Source of the DNA: an uncultured Poribacteria bacterium
Lineage (GTDB): Bacteria > Poribacteria > WGA-4E > WGA-3G
Assembly: GCA_951828385.1 (NCBI GenBank)
Contig: OX639973.1
Span: 2,241,561-2,305,560 of the forward strand
Direction: 5' to 3'
DNA: 64,000 nt
Position 1 is the stretch's first letter; every line of letters begins with the position of its first letter. Of the stretch, positions 3,366 through 57,379 are shown piece by piece. The translations under genes and the position numbers were made by a program. The notes beneath the pieces were generated by a model. That model was not told where the DNA came from and searched no databases. It saw only the letters and a list, made by a program, of their open reading frames with translations.

Positions 3366-5105
3366 CTATTTCTCAGACAGTAACTCTCGTGCATGTGCAA
3401 GCCCTATTTCCGTTTCTTTGCCACCGTGCATTCGGGCGATTTCGTTAACCTGTTCTTCCACCGCTAACGGTTTCGCGGTAATCAGAGCCCGTTCATCAAC
3501 AACCTTTTTTTCGACTCGGAAATGCTTGTCAGCAAAACGGGCGATCTGTGGAAGATGCGTAATACAAATCACCTGTGAGAACGCCGAGAGTTCCTTCAAT
3601 TTTTTGCCAACAACATCTGCGACCTTGCCGCCAATGCCGCTATCAATCTCATCGAAAAGCAGCGTCGGAATCTCATCGACTTGTACCAACACCGTCTTTA
3701 AAGCGAGCATGATCCGGGAGATCTCACCACCTGACGCGATTCTTACTATCGGTCGCGCTTCGGAGCCGACGTTCGGTGCAATCAAGAATTCCACAGCGTC
3801 CATCCCATCGGAACGAAATGCATAACGTTCACCCTCTACTTGAAACGGACCGCGTTCGTCTGGAATGTGTTCGACGGATGCCTGAAACTCTGCTTTGTCC
3901 ATGCCGAGCGTGCGGAGTTCCTTTTCAATCCGTTCTGAAAGATGCTTCGCGACGTGTCGCCGTTTCGTTGAGAGTGCTGTACACAGATGCTGCGCTTCTT
4001 GGATCGTTTCCTGAATCTCGCCTTGGAGCGACGCTTGTTTCTCTGAACCAAGTTGTAAGGTCTCCAATTTTTGTTCGGCTTCAGCATGGTATGTGAGTAT
4101 CTCGGAAATGGTGTTGCCATAACGCCGCTTCAGTTTCGCGATCAGCGCAAGGCGGTCGGCGATCTCGTCCAGCCGCCCTTGATTGAATTCCACGGTGTCT
4201 GCATACTGACGGATCTGTAAGGCGATATCTTCCAATTCGTAGAGCGATGATTCCAAACGCTCCCGCAATTCCGAGAGGCTGCCATCCATATCTGATAAGT
4301 CTATGAGCGCGTTCGCAACATCTTTCAGACGGTCAAGCGTAGACAAATCCCTTCCCATACCCCCGCCACCAAAACTTCCTGCTCGGTTGCTGCCATCCAG
4401 TTGTTCCCATACATAATTTGCTGACTGAGATAATTTCTCCGCATTTTTTAGTACCTGTGCTTCATCTGCCAACTTTTCGTCTTCACCTTCCTCCAAATCC
4501 GCCGTGGTCAGTTCGTTAATTTCAAATGCAAGGAGATCTTTTTCGCGTTCTGATGCAGCCAAAGTGTCCGCGAGGGCTGCCGCCTCTTGTTGCAAAACAC
4601 TGAGTTGCGTGTATAACTTGCTAACCTGTTGCCTCGCCTCACTGCTTCCACCGAAATCGTCCAAAAGTTTGAGATGTGTTTCGGTCCGAAATAGCGATTG
4701 ATGTTCGTGTTGCCCGTGGATGTCAACAAGCAGTGTTCCGAGTTCTTGCAACTGCTTTAAATTCACCAAACGCCCGTTGATATGGCAGCGGCTCCTACCG
4801 TTGGCACTAATTTGCCTTGAAAGAATCACCACATCGGAGGGGTCCAACACATCGTTAAATGCAAAATCGGTGTGCCACATCGGATGCGTATCGTCAGGCG
4901 CGACACTCGCTTCTACCTTTGCAAAATCGGTACCTTCGCGTACAACATCGGCGGAGGCTCTCTCACCTAACACCAATCCAATCGACTTGAGGATAACCGA
5001 TTTACCGGCACCGGTCTCACCTGTAAAAATATTCAATCCGGGTGCCAGTTCCAAGTCAAGTTCATCTATGAGGGCAATGTTGCGGATAGAGAGTGTTTCT
5101 ATCAT
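3366..5105 (-). CDS. recN: DNA repair protein RecN
   Basis: 579 aa. N-terminal Walker A (NIFTGETGAGKS), long coiled-coil middle, C-terminal SMC signature/Walker B region (LLFDEIDSGIGG). Lies downstream of nadK, as in many bacteria. Confidence 0.9.
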   Translation of the reverse strand: MIETLSIRNIALIDELDLELAPGLNIFTGETGAGKSVILKSIGLVLGERASADVVREGTDFAKVEASVAPDDTHPMWHTDFAFNDVLDPSDVVILSRQISANGRSRCHINGRLVNLKQLQELGTLLVDIHGQHEHQSLFRTETHLKLLDDFGGSSEARQQVSKLYTQLSVLQQEAAALADTLAASEREKDLLAFEINELTTADLEEGEDEKLADEAQVLKNAEKLSQSANYVWEQLDGSNRAGSFGGGGMGRDLSTLDRLKDVANALIDLSDMDGSLSELRERLESSLYELEDIALQIRQYADTVEFNQGRLDEIADRLALIAKLKRRYGNTISEILTYHAEAEQKLETLQLGSEKQASLQGEIQETIQEAQHLCTALSTKRRHVAKHLSERIEKELRTLGMDKAEFQASVEHIPDERGPFQVEGERYAFRSDGMDAVEFLIAPNVGSEARPIVRIASGGEISRIMLALKTVLVQVDEIPTLLFDEIDSGIGGKVADVVGKKLKELSAFSQVICITHLPQIARFADKHFRVEKKVVDERALITAKPLAVEEQVNEIARMHGGKETEIGLAHARELLSEK

Positions 5106-5148
5106 TATAGTTTTCGGTTGTCAGTTTTCAGTTAAAGAGGTCTATCTC

Positions 5149-6153
5149 TTAACTGACACCTATTCCCAACATTAGTTTTTCACGCAAGGCTCTATAGTAA
5201 CTATGATGTCGCGAACGGATCAGTTGAATTGTCCGTTCTGCTCTCTCCACTCTTATGACTGCACCTGCAGTGAGGCTGTGCGTCTCGCGCTGTCCATCGA
5301 CAAAAACATCGACGCTCTGATACGCCGCACGCATCTTGACGGTTACCTCAGCATTACCATCAGCGATAAAGGGGCGCACGGTCAAACTATGCGGGGCAAT
5401 AGGCGTTAGAAGGATCGCCTCTAACTGCGGGGCAACGATCGTACCAGCACAAGAGAGCGAATATCCAGTCGAACCACTCGGCGTTGCGATTATCAATCCA
5501 TCAGCATTATACGGTATAAAGAGTTCGTCGTCAATATACGCGTCTAATTCAATGAGGCGCGTATAGTGCCGAATAACGACATCGTTGAGCGCGAAAGCCC
5601 GGAACGGTTTTTTTAATTTTCCTTGCGGTTCGGTAAAGTGGGTTTCGCCCTTCACGGTCCTGTCCGTATATCCGCCCTCCATTTCATTATGGGCTATGGT
5701 TTTATTAGCATCTGCAATTTCTTCTTCCGATTCGGTCAGGTCTACTTGGGGCTGCCCATCCACAACAACTTCTAACATCATACGATGTTCTACCCGATAG
5801 TCCCCTGCTAAGGTCGCCTTCAAAGTCGGATAAAGTTGGTCAAGCGATGCATCCGTCAAAAACCCAAGCGTCCCAATATTAATCGCCAAGATAGGTACAT
5901 TCTCAATCTGTGGTGTATGTGCTGCGCTCAGGAGTGTCCCATCTCCACCCAGAACGAGAAGCATATCTGCTTGTTCAACGACCTCCGTTTTGGAGATACC
6001 GGTTTGCGGATACCCTAATTCAACGGCTTGTTCCTCTGGGAGCAGCGGGATAATACCGCGTTCTTTAAGCCACGTAGACACATCTTTGACGATGCCTGCC
6101 GCGTTCGCTTTGGTAGTATTAACAAAAAAACCGACTTTTTTTATTTCTTTCAT
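5149..6153 (-). CDS. nadK: NAD kinase (PpnK/NadK) with a C-terminal extension
   Basis: 334 aa with GGDGT motif (MLLVLGGDGTLLSAAH) and NE/DGLIIATPSGSTGYSLSAGG-like motif (DGLIIATPSGSTGYSLSCAG). Confidence 0.85.
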   Translation of the reverse strand: MKEIKKVGFFVNTTKANAAGIVKDVSTWLKERGIIPLLPEEQAVELGYPQTGISKTEVVEQADMLLVLGGDGTLLSAAHTPQIENVPILAINIGTLGFLTDASLDQLYPTLKATLAGDYRVEHRMMLEVVVDGQPQVDLTESEEEIADANKTIAHNEMEGGYTDRTVKGETHFTEPQGKLKKPFRAFALNDVVIRHYTRLIELDAYIDDELFIPYNADGLIIATPSGSTGYSLSCAGTIVAPQLEAILLTPIAPHSLTVRPFIADGNAEVTVKMRAAYQSVDVFVDGQRETHSLTAGAVIRVERAERTIQLIRSRHHSYYRALREKLMLGIGVS

Positions 6154-20472: not shown

Positions 20473-20739
20473 GATTTTTACCCTCAATATTCGGATTCTG
20501 ATTGGTAGCAGTATATCACATTTGGGTTTTTGTATATTCGTAAAATCTATACTCTTACGTAAAGATAATCTAAAACCAAATCGTACTATCATAGTTCAGA
20601 ACCATTCAATTCTCCATTTTTCGCTCGAATCTTCACCACAAGGCCCGGTAGGTGCGGTTTTGGATGCACTTTACTGAGGCACATGGATAAAAACATATCC
20701 AAAAACCAGTATTCAGGAGATCCTTTTGTGGATTGTCGC

Positions 20740-30562: not shown

Positions 30563-31510
30563 TCATTCGCTTTCATTTTCGCTATTGGCGAGGTGCGCCC
30601 GGAGGCGTTCTAACTCGGCTTCTATTGCCAGTCGTCTTTCGGCTTCTTCTCTGGCGCGACTTTCCGCGGCTTGCCGCTGTTCCGCTTCTTCTCTGGCGCG
30701 ACTTTCCGCGGCTTGCCGCTGTTCCGCTTCCTCTCTGGCGCGACTTTCCGCGGCTTGCCGCTGTTCCGCTTCCTCTCTGACGCGTCTTTCTGCCGCTTGC
30801 CGCTGTTCCGCTTCTCCTGCCAGCAGTTCTTCTGCTGCCACTCGTAGGTGATGTTCCTCCAGGGAAGTTGTAATAGCGGTGCCATCGGGAAGATACGGAC
30901 GTAAAAGCCGCAGCTCCCACGCCTCATGAAGCTCCCACCGAAAATAAAGGTTTAACGACGCACTGAACAAACCATCATCAGCCTCTTCTTCAATCTCAAC
31001 GATGTCGCCCAATGCATCCCGCCGCCACCCCCGAAATTCTATAGGGCGATTCATGTTGGGTTGATGAATGAAATACTCCGCAACCCCCATATCCCGCAGA
31101 TACACTTCAATTTTTTCATGCCGGTCCTCAGACGCTGTTGTATCTGAAAGGAACTCAAAAACTGCTGTAGGGACGGCGCCTTCTGCCCAGGTATAAAAAC
31201 TCCTTCGTAACGGAAGTTTCGCGGCACCAAGGGCGACAAACACATCGGGAGCCACGACCTTTCTGATATCGCCTTCGCGGTAATAGATAAAGTTGTCCAT
31301 ACCGACATGGATATACGGGTGTGCCTGAAAATATCGTAAGAACTGGTCAAATAAACTATGCATCTGCATTCCGTGAAATTCGCCTGCTGGCATGGGTTCA
31401 TCGTCCTCATAAGGGTAGCCTTCAATGTAAGTGGTCGGTTTTCCACTCGCTTTTGGAAAGACAGGCATGTATTTTCTTTGCTTGAGTTCAAAATCGTTTA
31501 GCGTATTCAT
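30563..31510 (-). CDS. Uma2-family (DUF820) putative endonuclease with a C-terminal coiled-coil tandem-repeat tail
   Basis: N-terminal ~230 aa Uma2-like (PVFPKASGKPTTYIEGYPYEDDEPMPAGEFHGMQM...VAPDVFVALGA...VFEFLSDTTASEDRHEKIEVY). C-terminus has 4 copies of the 14-aa unit AEQRQAAESRAREE. Confidence 0.7.
   Translation of the reverse strand: MNTLNDFELKQRKYMPVFPKASGKPTTYIEGYPYEDDEPMPAGEFHGMQMHSLFDQFLRYFQAHPYIHVGMDNFIYYREGDIRKVVAPDVFVALGAAKLPLRRSFYTWAEGAVPTAVFEFLSDTTASEDRHEKIEVYLRDMGVAEYFIHQPNMNRPIEFRGWRRDALGDIVEIEEEADDGLFSASLNLYFRWELHEAWELRLLRPYLPDGTAITTSLEEHHLRVAAEELLAGEAEQRQAAERRVREEAEQRQAAESRAREEAEQRQAAESRAREEAEQRQAAESRAREEAERRLAIEAELERLRAHLANSENESE
30643..30810. repeat. Near-perfect 42-bp tandem repeat x4 (coding; encodes the EAEQRQAAESRARE repeats of the Uma2 protein)
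   Basis: Unit cttcttctctggcgcgactttccgcggcttgccgctgttccg at 30643, 30685, 30727, 30769, with 0-4 substitutions per copy. Spawns artefact ORFs on both strands. Confidence 0.9.
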
Positions 31511-31630: not shown

Positions 31631-32818
31631 TTAACACCCCTTGTCCGCTTTATCAAGCAGTTTGGTGGTAAAGGTATCGGCGCGTTCCAAATTGCCGTGC
31701 CGAACCCAGTTGAAAAGACATTCAGCAGAACACTCAGGGTTTGTGAGGCCGAGACAACATGTTGTAGGAGGGATTTGCAACCCCGATCCCGCATCTTCAA
31801 CGGTGTTGATAAGCGTTTCAAAGAAGTCGGCGCGTTTCTTAGGCGTTGGAAAAGCCTTGAGAATCTCGGAACGACGCGCCCCAAGGAACTCAATAAATGC
31901 ACCGTAGCCGTTGTTTTCAAACTGGTTGGCGAGTTGCTTATGGAGCCGTTTCGCTTTGTCACTGTCTTTGCCGTTTTGAGTCGATACACTAATTATTAGA
32001 TTGTCGTCTACCACAAGATCAGGGGTGAAGTGGGTGCCAGCACTCGGTTGATCAAGATATTCTCGAATGAATCCGGTTTCACTTTCACAAGATGCGTCTA
32101 CCGCTGAAGATTTGTCTGCGATTACAAGGAATGCATCTTCAAGATGATGCGGTTTCACTTCGTCCGGTGCCGGACGGACAACAGACGCACCACATCGGTT
32201 TAGCAAGGAGATGCGGCGTTCAATCTTCTGCGTTTTCTGCTTATATAAGACGATACACGTGCGATTTTCCAATAGTAGGTAGACAGGATAGGGTAACGCT
32301 TGCCCTCCTTTTTCACTGGCAATCGGCACCGGTACTCCATCTTCATACCCGAGCGTATATAGAGAAGTCGCGTTCAGTATTCTCTCAAAATGTTCACGGA
32401 TGCGGCGGCTCGTCGCGGGACTTTTACCACTCGTGGAGATGCTGAGCATCAAGTCGCCATCCGTTACAACAGAAGCGGCGGCGAAGGTGCATTGTGGGAT
32501 AACATCAACGACATTAACTAAACGAATTTTGTTTTTCTCGTGCGCTTCTGTGAAGACAGCAGTGTTAATATCCGTGAAATCGGTGGCAGCACAAACGAGG
32601 AAATAGCCGTGCGTGTCACCTATTTTCAGTTGCCGTTTGTGCCAGCGAATTGTGCCGATTTGTGCAAGGTAGGTCAGCAATTCGGTTGCATCAGGACTCA
32701 CCACGGTAACATCGCCACCACTGACGAGCATAGCGACGACTTTCCGCTCAGCAACGGTTCCGCCCCCTACGACAAGGCATTTCCGATCTTGAAGGTTTAC
32801 GTGCACAGGATAAAACAT
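31631..32818 (-). CDS. Precorrin-2 dehydrogenase / sirohydrochlorin ferrochelatase-like (SirC/Met8p-type). Has a tandemly duplicated Rossmann-type domain and a Cys-rich C-terminal tail.
   Basis: N-terminus VHVNLQDRKCLVVGGGTVAERKV...LMLSISTSGKSPATSRRIREHFE matches the CysG N-terminal/SirC pattern. A second degenerate copy follows (YLLLENRTCIVLYKQKT...LIISVSTQNGKDSDKAKRLHKQL). The C-terminus carries TTCCLGLTNPECSAEC. Confidence 0.6.
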   Translation of the reverse strand: MFYPVHVNLQDRKCLVVGGGTVAERKVVAMLVSGGDVTVVSPDATELLTYLAQIGTIRWHKRQLKIGDTHGYFLVCAATDFTDINTAVFTEAHEKNKIRLVNVVDVIPQCTFAAASVVTDGDLMLSISTSGKSPATSRRIREHFERILNATSLYTLGYEDGVPVPIASEKGGQALPYPVYLLLENRTCIVLYKQKTQKIERRISLLNRCGASVVRPAPDEVKPHHLEDAFLVIADKSSAVDASCESETGFIREYLDQPSAGTHFTPDLVVDDNLIISVSTQNGKDSDKAKRLHKQLANQFENNGYGAFIEFLGARRSEILKAFPTPKKRADFFETLINTVEDAGSGLQIPPTTCCLGLTNPECSAECLFNWVRHGNLERADTFTTKLLDKADKGC

Positions 32819-32913
32819 TTTATAATAGTTCTCAGTCGTCAGTCGTCAGTTATCAGTTAAGAGGTGGTCTGATTAATCAAAAATATCTTTAACCGACAGT
32901 TGATAGTCATTCC

Positions 32914-33897
32914 TCATGACTCGCGTGAAACGACGTAGTCTGCGAGTTGTTCGAGTGCGAGGCGGGCAGGTGTCTCTGGTAAGTCTGTCAATGCTGCTTT
33001 AGCACGGTCGGCATAGTCTTGGGCAACCTTCAAACAGTGAGTCTCGACACCATACCGTTGGAACAGTGCCTCAACAAAGGCGATCGCCTCTGCTTCATTC
33101 GTATTCGGATTCAGGACTTTCTCAAGTGTCTGCTTTTCATCATCATTGCAAACGGATCTGGCATAAATGATTGGAAAAGTGAGTTTTCCTTCACGGAGGT
33201 CCCCGAATGTATTTTTTCCTAATTTATCAGAATCTTCCGTGAAATCAAGCACATCATCGACAATTTGGAAGGCGGTTCCAATTTGCTGTCCGTAGGTTGT
33301 GAGTGCCTCAACCTGCTGTGTGTCTGTTGGGTTTCCGAGGTGTGCGCCGAGGGTGCAGGACGCAGCGATCAACTTACCGGTCTTGAAACTGATGATTTTG
33401 AGGTACTCGGCTTCGGAGATGTCAAAATCACCGCTTTTATATGCATGGATAACTTCACCTTCACACATCGCCTGCGTGGTGTCGGCGAGGATCGCCATCG
33501 CGGGATCGTCGGCACGACGGGAGACGAGCATAGAGAGGACACGCGCATGGAGATAATCTCCGACGAGGACAGCGACTTTATTGCCCCATTTCGTCTGTAA
33601 GGTCTCACGTCCACGCCGGATCGCGGCTTCATCAAGCACATCGTCATGAACAAGTGATGCAACATGGATGAGTTCAACGACAGCGGCAAGCGTGTGTGCA
33701 TCGTTTCCTTCATATCCGTAGACCTTGGCAGAAAGCACAACGAGGATAGGACGGAGCCGTTTGCCCCCGCCTTCTACAACATGTTGGACTGCCATATCGA
33801 CGAAACTATACTCGCTGGCGGTGTGTTCCGTGAGTTTCACCTCAATAGCACTGAGATCATCGGCAATTAATTCAACAATTTGATCAAAACTGGACAT
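32914..33897 (-). CDS. Polyprenyl diphosphate synthase (trans-IPPS; IspB/HepT-like)
   Basis: 327 aa with both Asp-rich motifs (LVHDDVLDEAAIRRG and FQIVDDVLDF). Confidence 0.85.
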   Translation of the reverse strand: MSSFDQIVELIADDLSAIEVKLTEHTASEYSFVDMAVQHVVEGGGKRLRPILVVLSAKVYGYEGNDAHTLAAVVELIHVASLVHDDVLDEAAIRRGRETLQTKWGNKVAVLVGDYLHARVLSMLVSRRADDPAMAILADTTQAMCEGEVIHAYKSGDFDISEAEYLKIISFKTGKLIAASCTLGAHLGNPTDTQQVEALTTYGQQIGTAFQIVDDVLDFTEDSDKLGKNTFGDLREGKLTFPIIYARSVCNDDEKQTLEKVLNPNTNEAEAIAFVEALFQRYGVETHCLKVAQDYADRAKAALTDLPETPARLALEQLADYVVSRES

Positions 33898-34058
33898 AAT
33901 GTAATGGTTGTCAGTTGTCAGTCATCAGTTGTCAGTTCGGTTTTTCTGCGAAAAACCTTTCAGTTATCAGTTAAAGAGGTGTACTGTGGCAGTAACATAA
34001 TTTGTAATTGCCACAAGAAGTTAACTGAAAACTGACAACTGATGACTGACAACTATTA
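33898..34058. repeat. Imperfect ~30-bp inverted repeat built from AACTGAC-type heptads, flanking an ~80-bp centre (hemL-ispB intergenic)
   Basis: Left arm ggttgtcagttgtcagtcatcagttgtcagtt (33906-33937). Right arm aactgaaaactgacaactgatgactgacaac (34023-34053). Related heptad runs at 5116-5160 and 32825-32860. Confidence 0.7.
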
Positions 34059-35342
34059 AAAGAGGTTCCCCAGTACCTCCGTTGCGGCTTGAACGGTTTT
34101 ATTGATATCGTCTTCAGAATGGACCAAAGAGACGAACCCCGCCTCGAACTGGGAGGGTGCGACATAGACCCCGCGTTGGACGAGTCCCCAGAAGTAGTGT
34201 TCAAAGCGTTCGGTATCCGCTGTGCGTGCGCCATCAGCATCCGTAACGGTCTCCGGTGTGAAGTAGAGCATCAGCATCGAACCGACGCGGCTATGCCAAG
34301 CATCAATATCGTGTTTTTGGGTTGCTTCAGCGAGTCCGTCCGCAAGGGCTGCCGCACGAGTCTCGAGTTGTTCATAAGTGCCCGGTTCAGCAAGCCTTTT
34401 GAGCGTTGTTATACCCGCGGTAACGGCTAACGGATTACCGGACAACGTACCCGCCTGATAGACATCGCCTTCTGGAGCGACACACTGCATGATGTCCCGT
34501 TTGCCGCCGTACGCCCCAACCGGTAAACCGCCACCGATAATCTTCCCTAAACAGGTCATATCAGGTGTGACGTTATAGTAAGTTTGGGCACCGCCATAAG
34601 CCACCCGAAAGCCGGTGATAACCTCGTCGAAGATGAGTACAATACCGTGTTCTTCGGTAATCTCACGGAGTTGATTGAGGTATCCGTCATGCGGTGGGAT
34701 GATCCCCATATTGCCCATAATCGGTTCGAGAATGAGACAGGCGATTTCATCTGGATTGGCTGCTACTGCTTCGCGGACAGCATCGGGATTGTTAAAGGGG
34801 ACGGTGAGCGTATTGCGTGCGAAATCCTCCGGCACGCCGCCGCTATCAGACAGTCCAAACGTTGCGACCCCAGAGCCGGCTTTTGCCAACAGATAGTCCA
34901 CATGACCGTGATAGCATCCGTCAATTTTGAGGATCTTATCGCGACCGGTATACCCGCGTGCGACGCGGATCGCGCTCATTGTGGCTTCGGTCCCGGAATT
35001 GACGAGACGTACCTTTTCGATTGAAGGCACAGCGTTGACAATAATCTCAGCGAGTTCCGTTTCTAATGTCGTTGGCGCGCCAAAACTGGTGCCGTTCAAC
35101 GCTGCTGCACCGATAGCCTCCGCAATGCTCGGATGCGCATGCCCTAAAACTAAGGGCCCCCATGAAGCAACATAGTCAACATACGCGTTTCCATCGATAT
35201 CGTATATTTTTGAACCTTCGCCACGTGCGATAAAACGGGGATGCCCGCCGACTTTGCTGAAATTTCGGACAGGACTGTTGACCCCACCGGGGATAAATTG
35301 TTGTGATTTTTGCCATGCGGCTAAGGATTTACTGCTCTCCAA
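34056..35342 (-). CDS. hemL: Glutamate-1-semialdehyde 2,1-aminomutase (HemL)
   Basis: 428 aa class-III aminotransferase with PLP-Lys region ([12 protein letters not shown]) and HemL-like N-terminus ([11 protein letters not shown]). Confidence 0.9.
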
Positions 35343-35444
35343 AGCGTTCCCTCCAAATTTTTAAATTTTTAGCTACTCGGTTTCTGATGAAGTTATGTCG
35401 TTATCAGTTGATAGAGACAAACAACGAAGGGTCAATTGCGATTC

Positions 35445-44412: not shown

Positions 44413-46041
44413 TTACTTCCGAATTAACATCTTACGCGTCGCAGTAAACTGCCCAGCTTTGAGCGTATAGAAATAGACTCCACTTGCGACTGGCTCTCCG
44501 TGAGCATTCTTACCATCCCAATAGGCAGCACGGTCTCTACTCTGATAGACACCTGCAGGCATTTCGCCTAACGGCAAACTCCGAACTAAAGCACCGTTCG
44601 CAGTATGAATGAAGACAGCGACTTCCGCTGGTTGCGCCAACTGATAAGGTATCCAAGTCTCTGGATTGAAGGGGTTGGGGTAGTTTGCCAAGAGCACTGT
44701 TTTTGGGGGTGTCGGTCGTGCCATCCGTGTCCCAACTGCCAAAAAGCGTTCTAAGATCGCGATCGTCTGTGGATCCGCACCGACATCCTGTGCCTCTTGG
44801 ATCCACTGCTGGACATCTTCTGCAGTGAAGGAGAAATCGTGTAGATGCTGTGCAAGAATAGGAGCCGCTTGGGAATCTACTGGTGCTTGGGCATCCACTG
44901 CCTTAGCAACAACAATGAGGTCTTCAATATTAACGACCCCATCTTTGTTGACATCCGCGCGTGGGTTTGCGCCATCTACGACAGTTTTTCCGTAGTTCTC
45001 TCCCACCTCAATAATGTCAAGATATGTGACACTACCGTCCCCTGTTATATCAACCGCTGCGAGTGGCTCCCACAAGCGGATTGTGTCGTCATCACTGCCA
45101 CTCACAAGAAGTGACCCATCAGAGTTCCAAGCAATTGTATTAACACTAGCGGTATGCCCTTTCAGAGTGGCTTTGTGTGCGCCAGTGGTGGAGTCCCATA
45201 AGCGGATGGTATCATCGCTACTGCCACTGGCAAGGATTGCCTCGGTTGGATGGAATGCCAACGTATGGACGTTACCGGTATGCCCTTCCAAGACGTGCAG
45301 CGGGGAATCCGTGTCCGTTGGGTCCCAAATACGGATGGTGTCATCGTTGCTTGCACTCGCGAGCAGCGTTCCATCAGGACTCCACGCAACCGATCTAACA
45401 GTATGCGTATGTCCGCGAAGTGTAGCAATGTTGGCACCGTTGTCTGGGTTCCACAAACGGACGGTACGGTCTCTACTTGCACTGGCGAGCAGCGTTCCAT
45501 CAGGACTCCACGCAACCGACTCGACATCATTCCGATGCCCCCGCAGTGTCCGAACGGGTCGACTTTTCCATGCGTCCCATGTTAAATCCCAGATACGGAT
45601 TGTGTCGTCATTGCTCCCGCTGGCAAGGATGGAGCTCCCCGGTTTAAAGGACAGCGTATTGACAGTGTTTGTATGTCCTGTGAGGTAACCTCTTATGTCT
45701 CCGTCATCTGTGTAAGACATCCCAATATAAGGGCGGAAAAAGAGTCCGCCGGCATAAACGACAAAACGCGAGTCATGCGATGAGATCGCAATATCAGAGA
45801 TTAAGAAGAGATCCACTTCGGTATGCCAAGGTTGTGCACCCGTGTCAAGATCCCAAAAGCGAAGGTCGCTATCGCCTCCCACACTGATAAGTGTGCTATC
45901 GTCTTTGAATGCCACTGCAGAGACATGAATTTTATGCCCGCTGAGCGTCCGAGTATGGAAGTACTCTTCGGCAGCGGCAAAAGGTAAAGTAACTGTGAAA
46001 ATGGACAGTAGCGTTAAAATCAAAAGGCTTATTTTTTTCAT
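44413..46041 (-). CDS. Secreted WD40 beta-propeller protein with a dockerin-like repeat and a T9SS-type (Por_Secre_tail/FlgD-Ig-like) C-terminal domain
   Basis: Signal peptide, about 7 WD40 repeats (LRGHTHTVRSVAWSPDGTLLASASNDDTIRIWD etc.), dockerin-like DVNKDGVVNIEDLIVVAKAV, C-terminal NYPNPFNPETWIPYQL...GVYFYTLKAG. Confidence 0.8.
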   Translation of the reverse strand: MKKISLLILTLLSIFTVTLPFAAAEEYFHTRTLSGHKIHVSAVAFKDDSTLISVGGDSDLRFWDLDTGAQPWHTEVDLFLISDIAISSHDSRFVVYAGGLFFRPYIGMSYTDDGDIRGYLTGHTNTVNTLSFKPGSSILASGSNDDTIRIWDLTWDAWKSRPVRTLRGHRNDVESVAWSPDGTLLASASRDRTVRLWNPDNGANIATLRGHTHTVRSVAWSPDGTLLASASNDDTIRIWDPTDTDSPLHVLEGHTGNVHTLAFHPTEAILASGSSDDTIRLWDSTTGAHKATLKGHTASVNTIAWNSDGSLLVSGSDDDTIRLWEPLAAVDITGDGSVTYLDIIEVGENYGKTVVDGANPRADVNKDGVVNIEDLIVVAKAVDAQAPVDSQAAPILAQHLHDFSFTAEDVQQWIQEAQDVGADPQTIAILERFLAVGTRMARPTPPKTVLLANYPNPFNPETWIPYQLAQPAEVAVFIHTANGALVRSLPLGEMPAGVYQSRDRAAYWDGKNAHGEPVASGVYFYTLKAGQFTATRKMLIRK

Positions 46042-46120
46042 CTGAATGCATCCTTTCCCGAAAACACTTTCGGGTGTAGATAATTTATGTTGCCCTAAAT
46101 TGCTCAAACTTTCAGTCGTT

Positions 46121-46220: not shown

Positions 46221-49200
46221 TCAATCGTTTTTCTTCTCAAGCGCGGCATAAAACATCCCGCTCCGTTCGGTAACAATATAAAGCCTGTTACGCTTGACAG
46301 CAACAGAAATGACGCGGCTTGGTACGTTTGGCGAGATCTGTTCCCATCTGCCCCGAGTATCCAATTGATAGGCACCCGTATCGCCAGCACCATAAACGGT
46401 TATATCATCTACGGCAACTCGGGCTATGACGGTGTGTGTACCACCTTTATCGGTGATTGCGCGCCAATTTTCACCGTCTGCCGATGTTAAGACCCCCGCG
46501 TCTGTGGCGACATAAACCGTTGAACCCGCAAAAACAATATCGTTGAAATGTTCAAATCGAAGTGGCAGTGTTGCGGTCAGGTCTTTCCATGTGTTCCCGC
46601 TATCAAACGATCGGAACAGATGTCCATCCCGTTTGCCAACGTAGACGGTTTCACCTGAAACAGCCAGAACGAAATGATCGGGCCCCTCATGGTTAGTAGG
46701 TGCGTCAATGTCTACCAGCCCAGTGTCGAACCATTCAGGTTCGCCGCGTCTCCACCGCAGGAGCCGCCCCTGATATTCCACATAGAACGTATCACCGCTG
46801 ACTGCAAACGCGCTGTGAGATGCTATGGACTCGCGGGTTGTGTCTATCGATTTATCGGCTTTCTCAGGATCGTTAGGGGCAGCGTCGGGTATATTTCTTT
46901 CCGACATCTCTTGTGATGCAGTTTTTGGAGGCTCAATAGAAAGATTTTCACCCAAAACAGGGGCTTCTGGCATAAGCACCAGCACACCGCCATTCTTAGA
47001 AAGATGGAAGATGCGCTGCTCGGTACCTTCTATGTCTACGGAAAGTGCGGTGCCGATGCAGTAGAGTTTATCGTCAGAAATTGCCAGCTGCGAAGAACGG
47101 AGTAGAAGACCGACAGCCAATACCGATCCTAATTCTGGTGTTAATTGATCAGGGCTGAATCGCAGGTCTCTCCATGACATCCCACCGTCGGTGGATTTCG
47201 CGATATTTGTACCGGTATAGGCGTAGAGTGCGTTTTTGAATGCGACTAAGTTAGATATCTGGGTTCCGACCATGCCTGTCATAAACGGATGCCACGATTC
47301 GCCAGCATCGGTTGAACGGATAAGTCCAAAAGGACTGGCTTTGAACAGGATATTTTCGTTCATGCCAATAGCGGGGAATACACTCAGCATAAACGAATTC
47401 ATCATTGAAAGCGGATCCAATTTTTTGTATCCGTGGTTTGTCCATGTTTCGCCGCCGTCAGTCGATCGGCATTGGAAGCCGGTGTATCCCAATGCCCAAA
47501 GCGTTTTTCCAGCAGTAAGGACCTTAATGCCCGGGGATAGCATCGTCAAGACTGGCTCGCTTGTAGGTGTGATTTCAGTCCACGAATCGCCGAAATCGGT
47601 TGACCGGAAAATTTCCCACATAGACTGCCCGGCAGACACCTCTTCGCGTATTTCATCCTCTTTAAAGGCTCCCAAGTCGGGACCTGTCCCGACATAGAGG
47701 TTGCTTTCAGAAACCGCTAAGGAGTGGATAGCCTTAGTGGTCGTTAGCGGCAATTTTTCCCACATATCCATTGCCGAATTATGCCCTGGATTGATACGGT
47801 AGAGTCCCTGATTCGTTCCGATAAACATTGTGTTTTCAAGAGTAGCCAAAGCAAAGATTTTTCTATCCGTCACTTCACCACCGAGGGGTGTCCACTGCTG
47901 TCCCCTATCTTCGGATCGGAAAACACCTTTATCTCTCAGCAGGAGGTATAAGGCTTCATCCGTTACGGCCAATGCGACAGCAATACCTTCGGGGCGGGTG
48001 CCAATCGGCTCCCACATCTCGCCGCTATCGGTTGAGATAAGTACTTTATCATCAGAAATAAGATAAAGGGTTCCGTTTTGCTCCGCCATCGGTATCATGG
48101 GGGGTGCCTCCGTAGGTGTCTCCAAAGTTGTTGTAGGGCTGAGGAACGTCCATGCTCGTGTGTCTGGCGTTAATCTATAGACACCGAGACGCGAAGCGGC
48201 GTAGATATCGCCATTTGAACTTACCAGTAAGCCGCCTACGGGGCCGCTCGCTGGTACGCTCGCGGGTCTCCACTGCTGTGGTGTTGTCAGTGGTTCCTTT
48301 TCTATCTGCGCGACAGCAGGGACAACAGGCTCTGAAACTTGCGGCCCGGCACCGCTGCCCCGACCCGTGGTATCAGAACGTCCGGCTTGGTTCCGTAGGT
48401 CCGGTTCCGCCTGCGTATCAATAACAATGGGTGTGTCAATAATTTCAACAGTGGTTTCCGATTGGGCATTCAAGTTGTAAGGTCTCTGAAAGCGACTCAG
48501 GTATTGGGACCCGACACCGATCATCAGCATTATAAGAATGGTAGCGGTGCCAAAAGCGATCCAGGGTAGCAACGGTTTTCCAACCGAAGGTGGTGCTGGT
48601 TTGATGTCGGCAACTTGCTGCATAATACGCTCAATGAAATTGGCAGGCATCTGGACGTTTCCAAGCGTTTCGCTAATCAGGTGCTCTTCGGCTTGTAAAC
48701 GCTCCCGTGCCCGGCGAAGCCGACTTTTAATGGTGTTCACCGATACCCCTAAGAAATTGCCAATCTCCTTCGCCGTCATTTCACCGAGGTAGTAGAGCGT
48801 TACCACCGTCCGTTCACTCTCTGGCAATGTTTCCAGAAGCTCTTTGACGATTTCGTGGCGATGTTCCATCGCTTCCGCCTCCCGTTGCTCCGATACATAA
48901 CGTCTATAAGAAAATGCCTCTACGTCCGCTACAGATGTGTCATCCAGGGATTGCATCGCGGGTTTGTTGCTTTGATGCCACCTCTTGCAAAGATTACTCG
49001 CAATCACATAAAGCCATCCAGCAAACTGGCTGGGATTCCTCAGCCTTGCAAGGTTTTTGTATGCTTGGAGGAAGGCATCTTGGGCAATCTCTTCAGCGAT
49101 GTGAAAATCGCCAATCTTCCGCCACGCCAGCGCGTGAACGCTTTTTTGGTACTTTTGGACCAAAGCACTAAATGCCGCTTCATCACCCGACAAAATTCTG

Positions 49201-49229
49201 TGAATCAGTTGAACATCGTTTTCCACCAT
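46221..49229 (-). CDS. Membrane-tethered ECF sigma factor fused, via one TM helix, to a large extracytoplasmic BNR-repeat beta-propeller domain (paralog 1)
   Basis: N-terminal ~190 aa has sigma70 regions 2 and 4 (HIAEEIAQDAFLQAYKNL...; LGEMTAKEIGNFLGVSVNTIKSRLRRARERL). TM helix PLLPWIAFGTATILIMLMIGV. At least 8 Sx(D/S)xGxxW BNR motifs in the remaining ~800 aa. Start taken at MVENDVQ (49229) by homology with paralog 2. Confidence 0.8.
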   Translation of the reverse strand: MVENDVQLIHRILSGDEAAFSALVQKYQKSVHALAWRKIGDFHIAEEIAQDAFLQAYKNLARLRNPSQFAGWLYVIASNLCKRWHQSNKPAMQSLDDTSVADVEAFSYRRYVSEQREAEAMEHRHEIVKELLETLPESERTVVTLYYLGEMTAKEIGNFLGVSVNTIKSRLRRARERLQAEEHLISETLGNVQMPANFIERIMQQVADIKPAPPSVGKPLLPWIAFGTATILIMLMIGVGSQYLSRFQRPYNLNAQSETTVEIIDTPIVIDTQAEPDLRNQAGRSDTTGRGSGAGPQVSEPVVPAVAQIEKEPLTTPQQWRPASVPASGPVGGLLVSSNGDIYAASRLGVYRLTPDTRAWTFLSPTTTLETPTEAPPMIPMAEQNGTLYLISDDKVLISTDSGEMWEPIGTRPEGIAVALAVTDEALYLLLRDKGVFRSEDRGQQWTPLGGEVTDRKIFALATLENTMFIGTNQGLYRINPGHNSAMDMWEKLPLTTTKAIHSLAVSESNLYVGTGPDLGAFKEDEIREEVSAGQSMWEIFRSTDFGDSWTEITPTSEPVLTMLSPGIKVLTAGKTLWALGYTGFQCRSTDGGETWTNHGYKKLDPLSMMNSFMLSVFPAIGMNENILFKASPFGLIRSTDAGESWHPFMTGMVGTQISNLVAFKNALYAYTGTNIAKSTDGGMSWRDLRFSPDQLTPELGSVLAVGLLLRSSQLAISDDKLYCIGTALSVDIEGTEQRIFHLSKNGGVLVLMPEAPVLGENLSIEPPKTASQEMSERNIPDAAPNDPEKADKSIDTTRESIASHSAFAVSGDTFYVEYQGRLLRWRRGEPEWFDTGLVDIDAPTNHEGPDHFVLAVSGETVYVGKRDGHLFRSFDSGNTWKDLTATLPLRFEHFNDIVFAGSTVYVATDAGVLTSADGENWRAITDKGGTHTVIARVAVDDITVYGAGDTGAYQLDTRGRWEQISPNVPSRVISVAVKRNRLYIVTERSGMFYAALEKKND

Positions 49230-49279
49230 CAGCATTCTCCATGTCTCACGCATAAACGTGATTGTGTTTACATTCAAAT

Positions 49280-49380: not shown

Positions 49381-49575
49381 CAACACCGCAAAACCGCACC
49401 TACCGGACCTGGGAACTGAGACGGGATTCAAGAGGGTTTTGAAGTCCTCAAGGTTTCCGCGTAGTATCCGGTTCGGTTAGGAATGCAGGTCGCATTTGGG
49501 CGTGTACGCCGCGATGCACGTCGCATCTGGGCGTGTACGCCGCAAAAACCGAACCTACCGGGCCTGGGTCTGAAA
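49381..49575. repeat. Complex intergenic repeat region. Direct copies of CAAAACCGCACCTACCGGRCCTGGG flank a 2x direct repeat GTCGCATYTGGGCGTGTACGCCGC.
   Basis: 49389-49413 and 49545-49570 carry the flanking motif. The inner repeats are at about 49485 and about 49517. A further inverted copy of the flanking motif lies at 20643-20665. Confidence 0.6.
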
Positions 49576-51300: not shown

Positions 51301-53184
51301 CTAAAACGCATTTGCGACCATCACAAGGTCCAAAATGTTCACAACACCATCAAAGTTCAAATCAAATTTCAAATCGGAATCTGTTGAACTACCAAAAGCG
51401 TTCGCAACGATCACAAGGTCCAAAATGTTCACAACACCATCAAAGTTCAAATCTTCACGAGGCGTATTCACCATTTGTTCTAATTCTTCCCAAAACTCAA
51501 CATTTGAAGAGGTGCGATGCAGTATGGAAATCGCTTGTTGTATTTCCAGATGATGCTCAAAATAATACCGGATTGTCGGAAGCACCGGTACCTGTTTATA
51601 CGTCTTAATATGTGCATTCAATATTTCCAGTTCTTGTGCTTTATATCTGTCCCCCAAATAGGCAAAAGTACCGCTATAAGCAAGGGACCACTGCGAAAAT
51701 AAGAAATCCGTAATCGGGTGCGGATCTCCGTAATCCAAATTGTCCGCGGTCCCATAAAAAGCGACATACGGAGCTGTCACCGCGTGAATATATTCGCCAG
51801 AAAAAACAATATCTGGCATCGCTTCAATAAGTTCTTCATGTAAAAGCATGTTCCCTTGAATAGGTGTCAATCCATCAATTGTAGCGTGATTTCTGATAAG
51901 CCCGTTAGCGTCAAGATGGATGGCATCAATGTTATATGTCTCTTGCACGTTTTTCAATAATTGCACGAAATATTCTCTATAACTTGAAGCTGCAGGATTT
52001 ATATAGGCGGGGCCTCCCAGTTCTAATTCCCATCCCTGTATGTTTCCATCGCTATCTCGATAGAAATAGGGTTCCCACTCAGCGTAACGCGGGTGGTCTT
52101 GAGCAACAAACGGAAAACCTGCATAGACCATTACCCTAAACCCGCGAGCCTTTGCCTCAGATACAAACGCCCCGAAGTGTTCCTGTCTCCAACCGCCGCG
52201 ACAGTAAATTAACACATTTTGCGGGTTGATCTGTTGTGGTAAAAAATCTAACATTCTAATGTAGTTACGAGTCAGTGAACAGTACATAACAACGAGTTGA
52301 ATATCTTTAACCCACGCCGGCTTATGAGCGAGACGCGATGCATTTCGCTCCATCATCCCTTGACGATACCTTTCCGCAGGCACCTGCCAATCACCCCTAT
52401 ATGTATTAAATCTCCAAATTGCGGAGGTAATATGTTGACGATTTTCAAAAGGAAGAAAATTGTGCGTGTTAAAAGCAATAGCGAAGAGATTTGGCTTTTT
52501 TCTCTCTGGCCACTGACCGAGTGCTTTAAATTGATCTGTTTCATCCTCACTCATCACAAAACATCCGCCCAATGTTCCTTGCACGACGGCAAGAGGGGCT
52601 TCCCATAGACCCGGATACGTCCAATACAAATCCATCGTGTGTTGTCCATTCATTATGTTTCCGCTGCGCCCTGGCACAATCGGAGATACCTGATCATAAT
52701 CTAAATTTCCGATTCCCCATCCGATAGTGGAAATTCCTGTTTGATCAGAAAAACCTTCCTGTCTAATTATTAAATCTCCAGTGAGCACCTCAATAATCAC
52801 CCACATAATAAGTGTGCTCTGATGCCACCGAGCCGTCAGTTTCGCCGCTAAGGGTGAAATCTTTTCAACTTCCAAGGCATCAGCACCACCTATTTCCCAC
52901 TCAGGTTCCAAGTAATCTTCGCCGTCTATTTCTGACTCATGGAACCGGGGCCCACGCATCCCTGAAAGTCTTGCATCTGGTCTTCCTGAAAGTGTATACG
53001 TTTCTTGAGTGAGTTTGTTATGCACATGTATGACGTTACCATTTTTAAACCGCACCTGATAGCGATCCGTCTCAGCGAAAACTTCACCATCTTCACTGAT
53101 CGTCAAAGTGTTTGACAACGCAGCGGGTACTAAAACAAACTGCAATATCAGCATATAAACACATTTTGTCCAAACATTTTTCAT
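51301..53184 (-). CDS. Secreted putative glycoside-hydrolase-like (TIM-barrel-type, family unassigned) protein with two C-terminal dockerin repeats
   Basis: Signal peptide MKNVWTKCVYMLILQFVLVPAALS. Catalytic-looking central region. C-terminal DLNFDGVVNILDLVIVANAF x2 (dockerin type-I-like). Confidence 0.65.
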   Translation of the reverse strand: MKNVWTKCVYMLILQFVLVPAALSNTLTISEDGEVFAETDRYQVRFKNGNVIHVHNKLTQETYTLSGRPDARLSGMRGPRFHESEIDGEDYLEPEWEIGGADALEVEKISPLAAKLTARWHQSTLIMWVIIEVLTGDLIIRQEGFSDQTGISTIGWGIGNLDYDQVSPIVPGRSGNIMNGQHTMDLYWTYPGLWEAPLAVVQGTLGGCFVMSEDETDQFKALGQWPERKKPNLFAIAFNTHNFLPFENRQHITSAIWRFNTYRGDWQVPAERYRQGMMERNASRLAHKPAWVKDIQLVVMYCSLTRNYIRMLDFLPQQINPQNVLIYCRGGWRQEHFGAFVSEAKARGFRVMVYAGFPFVAQDHPRYAEWEPYFYRDSDGNIQGWELELGGPAYINPAASSYREYFVQLLKNVQETYNIDAIHLDANGLIRNHATIDGLTPIQGNMLLHEELIEAMPDIVFSGEYIHAVTAPYVAFYGTADNLDYGDPHPITDFLFSQWSLAYSGTFAYLGDRYKAQELEILNAHIKTYKQVPVLPTIRYYFEHHLEIQQAISILHRTSSNVEFWEELEQMVNTPREDLNFDGVVNILDLVIVANAFGSSTDSDLKFDLNFDGVVNILDLVMVANAF

Positions 53185-53218
53185 AAATGCATCTCTTTCT
53201 TGTGTTATTTCTCTTTCT

Positions 53219-55248
53219 CTATTCAAACGCATTCGCTACAATCACCAAGTCCTGTATATTGACAACGCCATCACCATTTATATCCGGTGCCGTTTCCCCA
53301 AACGCATTTGCGACGATGACCAAATCCTGGATATTCACGACACCATCACCATTAACATCCGCAGTGGGAGGCGTTTCCGACTTCAAATAGATTTCGCCAT
53401 CCAAATCTGCCAACGTATGCTGGCGTTGATTCTCTACACCGCTTGCCCAGCCGGAGACCTCCTGCGGAAGTTCTATCTCCTGTTCCTTACCAGAGCGATT
53501 ATACACCGCCCAACCATTGGTGAATTCCCGGATAAACAACCCCTCTCGGTTCTCATAAAGCTGCGCTTTCGTTTCATTGCCACCCACCGGACGACCGAGG
53601 TCGGCGTTCCAGAAATCGTACCAGTAAAACTCATCATAATGGAACGTATAAACCGATGCATTGGAATGCGTGAGTGCCATTGTCGTGAAAAACCTGTTGC
53701 GTTGCTTTGCTTCGGGACCGTCGATCGGTTTGAAAGGTGACAACTCACCTTCTAAAAGATTTAATGTTGGTTTCCTCAGCTTCGTTCATTCCACAAAAGC
53801 GCATCTTCTATGTCACGGATCCCAGACAAGGTATAGCCCTCAGGTTCACCCGGGTGAAAGTCATAAAGATCACGTCCTGTTTCCATGTAGATACCGTTGA
53901 CATAGGGTGCCCAACGGCGCTGCAGTTTACGGCGGTTGTTGTTAACGAGTATAAAAAAGTCATCGGGGACAACTTCGCGAATGCGTCGGAGGATTGTGTC
54001 CATCGCAATAGATTCTTCTTCTGCGGTATAGATTCCCTGTAGCCTCTTTTTTCCTTCGCCCCAATGGTCAAAAAAGATACCATCATAGAGTCCACACTCG
54101 CTAATCGCTTTTGCCTGTTGCACAATTTGTTCTATGACAGCAGGTTTCGTGAAGTCAATAAGATGATCTATTAGTTCTTCCATGGCATGCCTGCGCCAAA
54201 CTGATGTTAGACGGTTTCCTTCTTTATCGCGTAGCCAACCGTCCCAATCTTCGCCATAAAAATCGGGGTGCCCGCTCTCAAAATACAGCCCTACAAGCAA
54301 AATCATATTAGGATTTCGGCGAAGGACTTCGGTGTGTGTTTCTATCATTTTATCCATCTGTCCTGTCCGTAAGGTTGCGTTTATACCCTCAGGAGACAGC
54401 CATATTGTTCTCACATCATTTCCGAGTGGGCCAAAAGGGTGCACTCCAAAAATAAAGTCAAACACCGTGAAAATTTCTATAGTGTGTTGATCGTGCTCCG
54501 CAAGCGTGTGGGATTTTACCCAATTAGAAGGAAAGTTTCTGTTTTGAATGCGTTCTGCCAAAGGGAGTTTGTACGAAAAATCGTCAAATAAAGATAAACA
54601 CCATCTCTCAAATGAGTTTTTTATTGCTCCTGCGAAATGCTTGATCTGGGAAAAATCCTCAATAGGGTTGTCTATTATTTCCAAAACTTTGAGTTTGGTT
54701 AGACCGGTTATTGCGGATAGGTCTGAAACCTGATTCTCGCGCAATAGCAATACTTCTAAATTTATCAGTCCCGCCAGGGGTGTTAGGTCTGAAATCTGAT
54801 TCTCGCTCAATTGCAATTCTTTTAAATTTATCAGTCCAGTGAGGGGTGTTAGGTCTGAAATCTGGGTGTCATAAAATTCGAGCGTGTGTAGTTTGACCAG
54901 TCCAGCGAGGGGCGTTAGGTCTGAAATGTTACATCGATTGATACTTAGAAACTTCAAATTAACGGCGTGTTGGAGACCTTCAAGGTTCTCAATTTCATCA
55001 CGTTCGCTTATAAGCGTGTGTAATCGTTGCATGTCCGCGATTGTTAGGCTTTCCACGTCCAACGCTTCTGATACAATTCTCCGTAGGTGTGGATCCGGCA
55101 TCCAGTCTTGGACATCTTCTGCATGGACGGAAGCATTATAGACAAGTATGCCCACAATCGACGCGAGGAACAACTGAAACCAAAATGATTTACGATATAT
55201 TTCTTTCATTGTCATAAGATAATCTATAATCTCCTTTTCAAAACGCAT
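53219..55248 (-). pseudogene. Disrupted paralog of the LRR-hydrolase-dockerin gene (two ORF fragments, 53776-55248 and 53219-53743, separated by a frameshift)
   Basis: Fragment 1 ends ...ALLWNERS*. The -1 frame then continues as KLRKPTLNLLEGELSPFKPIDG..., colinear with ...TLLWSEKNFREPQINALEGWGLESEPLDSP... of the intact paralog 55238-57268. A single nucleotide near 53787-53790 restores the frame. Confidence 0.65.
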
Positions 55249-57229: not shown

Positions 57230-57379
57230 AGGTATAACTAAAGTTTGGACAATCGATTTGTGTATCAAGTAGCGTTTTCAAGGGGCTTGGTATTTTTCTG
57301 TGAGTTCTGTACCCAGGCAAACGCGGAAAAAACTATAACAGGTTAGTTACACAAGAGACACAGCCTAACAGGAGACCAT

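Follow-up and report, generated by a model that had tools for sequence, protein, structure and literature searches.

Direct repeats of the heptamer TAACTGA have been described in the draft genome of the orange Guaymas 'Maribeggiatoa' (BOGUAY), which carries 170 sets of 2-6 units each, 36 of them split by related heptamers (MacGregor 2015, Front Microbiol 6:1397, PMC4679880). Most of these sets (132 of 170) are directed at a start codon that has no ribosome-binding site, and their commonest end point is 1 nt upstream of it; 14 sets overlap the end of the upstream open reading frame (ORF), and about 10% of the repeat-bearing spacers contain a Shine-Dalgarno (SD) sequence (PMC4679880). The repeats are also found in Thiocystis, 15 Cyanobacteria and 5 Bacteroidetes, are strain-specific and show insertions and deletions (indels) in 7-nt steps (PMC4679880). 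It has been proposed that they regulate translation through S1, CsrA-like or cold-shock proteins, or that they have no role (PMC4679880). Other, unrelated heptamers modestly changed promoter-reporter responses in Nostoc constructs, the remainder of that account being speculation (preprint, bioRxiv 10.1101/2022.06.06.494920). Here, we analyse heptad repeats that precede recN, a sirC-like gene and an ispB-like gene in a 64-kb stretch of DNA from an uncultured Poribacteria bacterium (64,000 nt; hereafter the window). Judged by their sequence, they are Poribacteria copies of the TAACTGA-type intergenic heptamer repeats, having all the features that define that class. The class itself is already published, and the window repeats are not a new kind of element. 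What is new is the Poribacteria host, a bounded palindrome with fixed polarity, and the alternation between an SD and an insert at one gene.

SD-independent initiation in bacteria is only partly understood, and the TAACTGA repeats are one of the few recurrent features that lie exactly at the SD position. So far they have been a curiosity of uncultivated giant sulfur bacteria. A second group of heptamers, the cyanobacterial STRR repeats, was reportedly described by Mazel et al. in 1990. The STRR1-3 units are CCCCAGT, TTGGTCA and CAACAGT. Like the window arrays, STRR and other long simple-sequence repeats are tandem heptanucleotides, mostly intergenic and variable in copy number, presumably by replication slippage. 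However, the STRR units have other sequences and are not known to form bounded palindromes that adjoin stop and start codons. The window units are NAAC(T/C)GA, and their host is Candidatus Poribacteria by 91-95% protein identity to records of that name. A cyanobacterial origin of the DNA was rejected, as there are only two HIP1 (GCGATCGC) sites in 64 kb and the proteins match those of Poribacteria.

Heptad arrays as bounded palindromic inserts

The window contains four arrays of at least three in-phase units with the core AC[CT]GA at a strict 7-nt period, and one doublet of the same core and period:
5114-5132, minus strand: array of at least three units
32832-32857, minus strand: array of at least three units
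33911-33936, minus strand: array of at least three units
34024-34049, plus strand: array of at least three units
33960-33971, minus strand: doublet

Arrays of at least three units are expected by chance at a mean of 0.005 (200 dinucleotide-preserving shuffles). The word AACTGAC occurs 15 times against 7.8 expected, about a 2-fold excess, and none of the shuffles reached 15. Independently, Tandem Repeats Finder reports period-7 arrays at 5109-5133, 32827-32859, 33907-33937 and 34023-34054. The heptad finding is real and statistically solid, and the three leader sequences quoted in an earlier note on this DNA are present on the minus strand exactly where it placed them. Although about 89% of the window is coding, all arrays are intergenic, and each sits in one of three intercistronic spacers between genes that are co-directional on the minus strand:
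5106-5148, minus strand: nadK-recN spacer, carrying a heptad array
32819-32913, minus strand: polyprenyl synthase-sirC-like spacer, carrying a heptad array
33898-34055, minus strand: hemL-polyprenyl synthase (ispB-like) spacer, carrying two arrays and the doublet

In the register NNACTGA, TAACTGA is the first unit in 4 of the 5 window arrays. The canonical doublet TAACTGATAACTGA occurs in two arrays on the minus strand (32846-32859 and 33960-33973), accompanied by the units CGACTGA, CAACTGA, TGACTGA and AAACTGA. The distance from the last AC[CT]GA core to the ATG is 8 nt for recN, 13 nt for the sirC-like gene and 13 nt for the ispB-like gene; the fourth array is a reverse arm that follows the hemL stop. 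The parts of the three elements, and of a probable fourth, are as follows:
5107-5135, minus strand: forward tract of the recN leader, TTAACTGA AAACTGA CAACCGA AAACTAT, then A-ATG; no SD-like 4-mer
5128-5156, minus strand: nadK-recN hairpin GUCAGUUAAGAG / CUCUUUAACUGA, made of inverted repeats, with the nadK stop (5149-5151) in its 5' arm; -18.1 kcal/mol, z = -3.45
32825-32860, minus strand: forward tract of the sirC-like leader, TTAACTGA TAACTGA CGACTGA CGACTGA GAACTAT, then TATAAA-ATG; predicted unpaired
32851-32898, minus strand: weak stem-loop UGUCGGUUAAAGA ... CCUCUUAACUGAUA, flanked by the polyprenyl synthase stop (32914-32916) and the forward tract; z = -1.4, which by itself is not significant
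33904-33938, minus strand: forward tract of the ispB-like leader, GAACTGA CAACTGA TGACTGA CAACTGA CAACCAT, then TACATT-ATG; it is the 3' arm of a long hairpin
33939-33957, no strand assigned: small inner hairpin GGTTTTTC-TGC-GAAAAACC, an insertion that separates two blocks of forward heptads
33960-33980, minus strand: distal forward doublet TAACTGATAACTGA, preceded by the junction ACCTCTTTAA
33985-34015, no strand assigned: central loop hairpin GTGGCAGTAAC...AATTGCCAC of the hemL-ispB element, from the fold and an inverted repeat
34021-34055, plus strand: opposite-orientation heptad tract, TTAACTGA AAACTGA CAACTGA TGACTGA CAACTA as read on the plus strand
35397-35414, minus strand: probable decayed remnant (CAACTGATAACGAC) in the hemB-hemL spacer, upstream of a normal GGAGGG SD

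The hemL-ispB spacer holds a 25-nt perfect inverted repeat (33913-33937 / 34030-34054), and its predicted fold has a free energy of -68.2 kcal/mol (z = -8.8). On the mRNA, the 34021-34055 tract forms the 5' arm, UAGUUGUCAGU..., and follows the hemL stop (34056-34058) immediately. The earlier note had claimed hairpins or inverted repeats at the nadK-recN and hemL-ispB heptads, with the recN hairpin overlapping the nadK stop, and had proposed structure prediction as a check. Folding bears the claim out at both of these sites, with the nadK stop codon inside the 5' arm, but the ispB-sirC spacer gives only the weak stem-loop listed above. The loop of that stem-loop, TTGATTAATCA, is conserved at the orthologous position in L121, L122 and L150 (loci of relatives, introduced below), and the inner hairpin module of 33939-33957 is found at other positions in L122 and L152. 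The junction ACCTCTTTAA, which is anti-SD-like on the mRNA strand and reads AAAGAGGT on the plus strand, is repeated at 5128-5140 and, with one T fewer, at 32853-32865. A known RNA family was rejected: a search of Rfam 15 gave no match at the gathering score in the whole window and none at E <= 1 in 32700-34200 or 5000-5300.

Every copy of the relatives examined has a common plan on the mRNA strand, namely a stop codon, a reverse arm, a stem, a forward arm and an ATG. The 5' part consists of the upstream stop, 0-5 nt, and ATAGTTGTCAGT-type reverse heptads beginning (A)TAGTTGTCAGT / (A/G)AGTTGTCAGT. The inner stem TTAAAGAGG/CCTCTTTAA, i.e. TTAAAGAG(G) ... (C)CTCTTTAA, encloses a variable loop. 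The 3' part consists of forward units NAAC(T/C)GA, a decayed terminal unit ...ACTGACAAC(T/C)AT (ACTGACAACTAT), 0-12 A/T-rich nt, and the ATG. The two termini, ATAGTTGTCAGT ... ACTGACAACTAT, are inverted copies of each other and are found again in relatives and at different sites. Across 343 kb of Poribacteria DNA, ACTGACAACTAT with at most 2 mismatches is matched 83 times against 26.8 in shuffles, mostly just before ATGs or, reversed, just after stops. The copies are not free arrays but a bounded, imperfectly palindromic insert that occupies the whole intercistronic spacer. The motif TCAGTTAAAGAGG was rejected as an independent dispersed motif and is confined to the heptad sites, because its 17 matches at <=3 mismatches compare with 14.2 expected.

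The likeness to the published TAACTGA class is close. Both have TAACTGA units split by CAACTGA, AAACTGA and TGACTGA, come in intergenic, forward sets of 2-6 units, end a few nt before SD-less starts, in some cases overlap the end of the upstream ORF, and show 7-nt-step indels between strains. However, Poribacteria were not among the phyla reported in 2015, and only one inverted repeat was found among the 170 BOGUAY sets, whereas the Poribacteria arrays are paired with a reverse array after the upstream stop. The conserved inner stem TTAAAGAGG/CCTCTTTAA, the terminal units ATAGTTG.../...CAACTAT and the frequent variants AACCGA, AACTTA and AACCAA also distinguish the Poribacteria copies. The earlier note did not recognise the described class and overlooked the reverse-oriented arm that immediately follows the upstream stop codons.

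The copies also resemble two kinds of dispersed palindromes. Like the repetitive extragenic palindromic (REP) sequences and bacterial interspersed mosaic elements (BIMEs) of Enterobacteria and Pseudomonas, they are imperfect extragenic palindromes, often located between co-directional genes just after a stop, with what are probably many dispersed copies, presence or absence between relatives and potential effects on mRNA stability. They differ from REP and BIME in being built of 7-nt tandem units with variable arm length, and in that the 3' arm reaches the next start codon and replaces the SD. Structurally, the suggestion in the earlier note of a REP-like element holds up, since the copies are palindromic, extragenic, present or absent at one site in close relatives, and have defined inverted termini. 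Like miniature inverted-repeat transposable elements (MITEs) such as Correia, ERIC and RUP, they are short non-coding inserts with terminal inverted repeats (ATAGTTGTCAGT ... ACTGACAACTAT) and with filled and empty sites in relatives, and they can add stop codons or expression signals to neighbouring genes. Unlike in MITEs, the internal sequence is not conserved between copies, and a possible TAA duplication is seen in one filled/empty comparison only. An autonomous parent element with the same ends was not seen in the loci fetched.

Presence, absence and unit turnover in relatives

Orthologous Poribacteria loci (L121-L131 and L149-L152) were compared. About 85-90% of the sequence of the Poribacteria loci examined is coding, yet every array of at least three units there is intergenic, and the period-7 arrays of at least three copies in Poribacteria DNA belong almost all to one family. 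The hemL-ispB element is present in the window, L121, L122/L123, L124, L129, L149, L150 and L152. It is absent in L151, which has a 35-nt spacer containing no more than a small GC hairpin, and in L130 and L131 (protein identity of 87% and 82%), where spacers of about 15-20 nt, TAAAGGAATTGA-ATG, carry a normal AAAGGA SD. The window, L121 and L150 have the ispB-sirC element; L122 retains it as a minimal palindrome of 58 nt, L149 has part of it, and L124, L130 and L131 lack it. Further copies marked by ACTGACAACTAT lie in the hemB-hemL spacer, where a normal SD follows, upstream of a VCA0040-like gene (L127 and L128) and in the hemA-hemC spacer (L150), giving at least 6 distinct element sites in the sampled Poribacteria DNA. 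The hemB-hemL spacer, which holds the probable remnant in the window, contains intact ACTGACAACTAT-ended arrays in L124, L129 and L149. Some copies are forward-only and have no reverse partner, such as those in L036 and at the hemB-hemL site in L124 and L149.

As read from the orthologous spacers, inserts are shown to appear, decay and vanish at one site among close relatives and to replace short ancestral spacers, and in at least one gene they displaced the resident SD. The clean cases of this exchange are ispB in L130 and L131. The L124 sirC-like gene was rejected as a clean replacement of heptads by an SD; its AAAGGAG lies about 16 nt from the ATG. The occurrence of the same gene with an SD or with an insert in close relatives makes a role of the insert testable through natural variants. 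In the filled/empty pair L122 and L151, TAA stands on both sides of the insert, a feature seen in this one comparison only, and it may possibly represent a target duplication. The sponge Poribacteria metagenome-assembled genome L036 was rejected as a source of an orthologous hemL-ispB spacer, as tblastn finds no hemL or ispB there; its forward array is followed by a AAAGGAGGG SD and by a TTG-start ORF with an N-terminus that is hydrophobic by eye.

The units themselves turn over rapidly. Within-array homogenised units are GAACTGA x5 in L122, TAACCGA x4 in L124, and TAACTTA x4.6 together with CAACCAA in L152, and the recN leaders of L125 and L126 have degenerate AACCGA/AACCAA units. Because unit number and sequence differ array by array, slipped-strand expansion and homogenisation, rather than a conserved binding word, are indicated. 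L122 and L123, from two samples, have identical arrays.

The insert also reshapes a coding sequence. In the window, L125 and L126, the NadK C-terminus reads ...LMLGIGVS*, and its last five codons (IGVS) and stop come from the element terminus GGAATAGGTGTCAGTTAA (5149-5166). L127 and L128 retain other, native C-termini, ...LMLGERIRQA* and ...ESVRRM*. On the evidence of these C-termini, nadK is fused to the element through a deletion at nadK-recN. Even if inert, such inserts matter for annotation, since they shift stop codons, as at the nadK C-terminus, mislead start prediction and break short-read assemblies.

Genes resembling IS605 OrfB/TnpB are found next to the heme operon in L121 (19899-20969) and L150 (3426-4640), with no established link to the heptad elements. 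A tandem repeat at window positions 57378-57574 has 6.5 copies of a 31-bp unit with the palindrome CACAAACTG(G/A)AAGTTTATGCTACA. A 24-mer of this family also occurs at L129 4238 and 4295, L151 11053 and 11109, and L124 17263; two relatives have two copies 56 nt apart in the ispB-sirC spacer, and it looks like a second dispersed small-hairpin family.

Initiation regions and competing explanations

None of the three window starts has an SD-consensus 4-mer in the last 25 nt (0/3), in agreement with the earlier note. In the Poribacteria loci, an SD-like 4-mer is present at 2 of 18 element-led starts and at 82 of 153 other ATG-ORF starts (Fisher p = 7e-4), a difference that weighs less than it appears because the sites are partly orthologous and the count of 18 is therefore inflated and non-independent. 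Other window genes have clear SDs, e.g. AGGAGG, AAGGAG and GGAGG. In partition-function folding of the region from -200 to +60, the start region (-15 to +12) of element-led starts is somewhat more open than that of controls (unpaired probability 0.55 vs 0.47, p = 0.013), and the region from -120 to -25 is more structured (0.38 vs 0.44, p = 6e-4). These models predict an upstream stem followed by an open initiation site. Because the palindrome fills the spacer, the stem has the upstream stop at its 5' foot and the AUG 10-30 nt past its 3' foot.

Species-representative genomes were scanned with ACTGANNACTGANNACTGANNACTGA, a pattern laxer than TAACTGA (its two leading positions are free), which yielded at least 120 loci; the counts that follow are those among the matches listed. 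ACTGA-core arrays occur in many phyla beyond the 2015 list, e.g. Acidobacteriota, Planctomycetota, Chloroflexota and Verrucomicrobiota. The loci also include Cyanobacteria, Bacteroidota, Poribacteria, KSB1, Latescibacterota, Omnitrophota, Methylomirabilis, Parabeggiatoa and others. Of the 159 arrays in these loci, 35 have the start of a long ORF within 25 nt in the forward orientation and 11 in the reverse orientation (p = 5e-4), and only 6 of the 35 forward start-proximal arrays have an SD-like 4-mer. The bias in orientation toward start codons is a general one, although a minority of the arrays accounts for it. Palindromic pairs have the order TCAGT-array ... ACTGA-array in 19 cases and the opposite order in 3, and the forward tracts thus point outward to the flanking genes.

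We assign a probability of about 0.5 to the reading that these slippage-prone, REP/MITE-like TAACTGA inserts, whose insert nature is shown by the comparisons above, carry in their G-poor forward tract a leader for SD-independent initiation or coupling. The forward tract, which is predicted to be unpaired, would serve as a landing or standby site for ribosomes on the downstream gene. The palindrome would set the upstream stop and the downstream AUG at the two feet of one stem, and a ribosome terminating on the 5' arm would cover or open the first dozen nt of the arm and could then initiate or re-initiate nearby. The insert would thereby preserve translational coupling in the operons that it invades, and the hairpin is also likely to affect mRNA stability as a REP sequence does. 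Two known mechanisms are similar to this. Leaders for S1-dependent standby initiation are unstructured and A/U-rich, and the G-poor leaders here are likewise predicted to be single-stranded beside an AUG that has no SD; translational coupling by termination-reinitiation or by ribosome-mediated unfolding would be matched by the upstream stop at one stem foot and the other foot beside the AUG. The analogy is functional only, as the leaders here are periodic heptads. The suggestion in the earlier note that the heptads may be a translation-initiation element for SD-less genes, already proposed for the published class (PMC4679880), fits the position of the forward tracts 8-13 nt before ATGs, the depletion of SDs and the AAAGGA SD in the insert-less L130 and L131.

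Several points weigh against a leader function. In the literature searched, the class is treated by hypotheses alone, and transcript, ribosome-profiling or reporter data are absent for all its members. About 46% (19/41) of the crude longest-ORF starts in the window also have no SD 4-mer, and the lack of an SD at the three starts is therefore weak evidence alone. The geometry of stop and AUG at the stem feet is automatic for a palindromic insert in a short spacer and therefore cannot count as separate evidence of selection. Among 13 orthologous spacers, the sense fold is the more stable in 7 and the antisense fold in 6; there is no consistent asymmetry, so that nothing marks the mRNA strand as the structured molecule. 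Most of the hemL-ispB forward tract is buried in the -68 kcal/mol stem. Conservation of the heptad core is lacking in the lineage, and this speaks against a specific binding partner. In the scan across phyla, start-proximal arrays make up only 22% of the total.

The chief rival is an account that we regard as tenable but less probable. It holds that the elements are purely selfish or neutral DNA, slippage-prone repeats seeding REP/MITE-like palindromes in tolerated gaps, and that the downstream genes use generic SD-independent initiation or coupling, whether or not heptads are present. The presence and absence of inserts and their fast turnover at orthologous sites, the drift of units with within-array homogenisation, the lack of strand asymmetry in folding, the other small palindromic repeat families in the same genomes, and the roughly half of crude window starts that have no SD are all consistent with it. 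Heptanucleotides are moreover the commonest long simple-sequence repeats in prokaryotes, according to the summary of Mrazek 2007 given in PMC4679880. Orientation would be explained by the presence of TGA or TAA in all frames of the forward units, which cannot enter the upstream coding sequence. However, this stop-codon argument covers the exclusion from genes, but neither the 3-fold forward excess before starts nor the 19:3 polarity among the matches listed. The ispB-like synthase, which is probably important, has lost its AAAGGA SD at the insert and yet is conserved at 89-95% identity, and the start region is open despite very stable upstream stems. A related idea, that the arrays act as an all-frame stop device with TGA every 7 nt, was rejected; it fails for the frequent units AACCGA, AACCAA and AACTTA.

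An extension of the leader reading, that ACUGA-type tracts are a cross-phylum module for SD-independent ribosome recruitment and translational coupling carried on a small palindromic mobile insert, seems to us unlikely. If true, a selfish element would invade operon spacers, even erasing a resident SD, by bringing its own initiation region and folding the stop beside the AUG.

Somewhat less probable still is the explanation that the hairpins are the functional part, as mRNA stabilisers, RNase III sites or partial terminators that set differential operon expression in the manner of enterobacterial REP and BIME, the heptads being mere stem material. Very stable stems of -68 to -77 kcal/mol fill the spacer in several relatives, the elements lie between co-directional genes directly after stops, and the region from -120 to -25 is significantly more structured than controls. 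However, the nadK-recN and ispB-sirC copies have short or weak stems in which most heptads are unpaired, and the forward arrays of L036 and of the hemB-hemL site in L124 and L149 have no reverse partner to form a stem. Nor does a T-run follow the stems on the mRNA strand, the sole terminator-like match in the heptad spacers (33939-33957) being on the opposite strand.

A sequence-specific DNA-binding regulator, the weakest of the three options in the earlier note, or a phase-variable contingency switch set by copy number would fit the classical operator architecture of direct repeats upstream of genes, the variation in copy number among species-level relatives and the Nostoc reporter effects mentioned above, but is highly improbable, because the arrays lie within operons beside start codons and not at promoters, the unit drifts (TAACCGA, GAACTGA, TAACTTA, CAACCAA), the genes are housekeeping genes (recN, heme and isoprenoid synthesis) and not typical contingency genes, the arrays of the two samples L122 and L123 do not differ, and sites repeated every 7 bp come to lie on different faces of the B-DNA helix, from which we infer that they are out of helix phase. 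Two sigma-70-like promoters in the leaders were also rejected, because the transcript would begin inside the gene: CTGAAA-16-TATAAT (5131-5104) has a -10 hexamer that overlaps the recN ATG, and that of CTGACG-16-TATTAT (32849-32822) ends 3 nt upstream of the sirC-like ATG. Small ORFs behind the plus-strand AAAGAGGT were dropped; by eye, there is one 4-codon GTG ORF at one site and nothing consistent elsewhere.

Flanking genes and other repeats of the window

NCBIfam supports the names recN, nadK, siroheme-synthase N-terminal domain (sirC-like), polyprenyl synthase (ispB-like) and hemL. The three genes led by forward tracts are:
3366-5105, minus strand: recN, ATG at 5105-5103, led by the first tract; TIGR00634, E = 4e-167, full length
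31631-32818, minus strand: sirC/cysG-N-like gene (siroheme synthase N-terminal domain), led by the second tract; TIGR01470, E = 8.5e-38
32914-33897, minus strand: polyprenyl diphosphate synthase (ispB-like), led by the third tract; NCBIfam

Many proteins share 89-95% identity with the polyprenyl synthase and RecN of the window, and several of these carry the name Candidatus Poribacteria bacterium. The recN start codon is fixed, because the N-terminus MIETLSIRNIALIDEL is conserved in relatives. The true nadK start is probably downstream of the longest-ORF start, because the longest ORF has 334 aa compared with 293-296 aa called in relatives.

Several further repeats are present in the window. 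A REP-like intergenic hairpin, CCCGGTAGGTGCGGTTT..AACCGCACC, occurs at 20644 (plus strand), 49389 (minus) and 49544 (minus) and in L122-L126, and L152 (1015-1231) has four tandem copies of it with a 72-bp period. Two tandem copies of a 31-bp GC-rich unit, ATGCACGTCGCATCTGGGCGTGTACGCCGCG, lie at 49483-49543 in a 407-nt spacer flanked by these hairpins. The 22-nt motif AAAGGGTGCATAATTTGAAAAA is found at 46146, 49305 and 61323 (plus strand), upstream of the minus-strand genes 44413-46107, 46221-49277 and 60590-61144, and could be a promoter or operator that they share. Inside the ORF 30563-31510 is a 42-bp tandem repeat at 30638-30815 (4.2 copies, 94% matches). Repeats of 66 bp (54718-54864 and 56814-56956) are located in the adjacent genes 53776-55248 and 55238-57268, and the genes 51301-53232 and 53776-55248 have nearly identical 25-nt upstream sequences.

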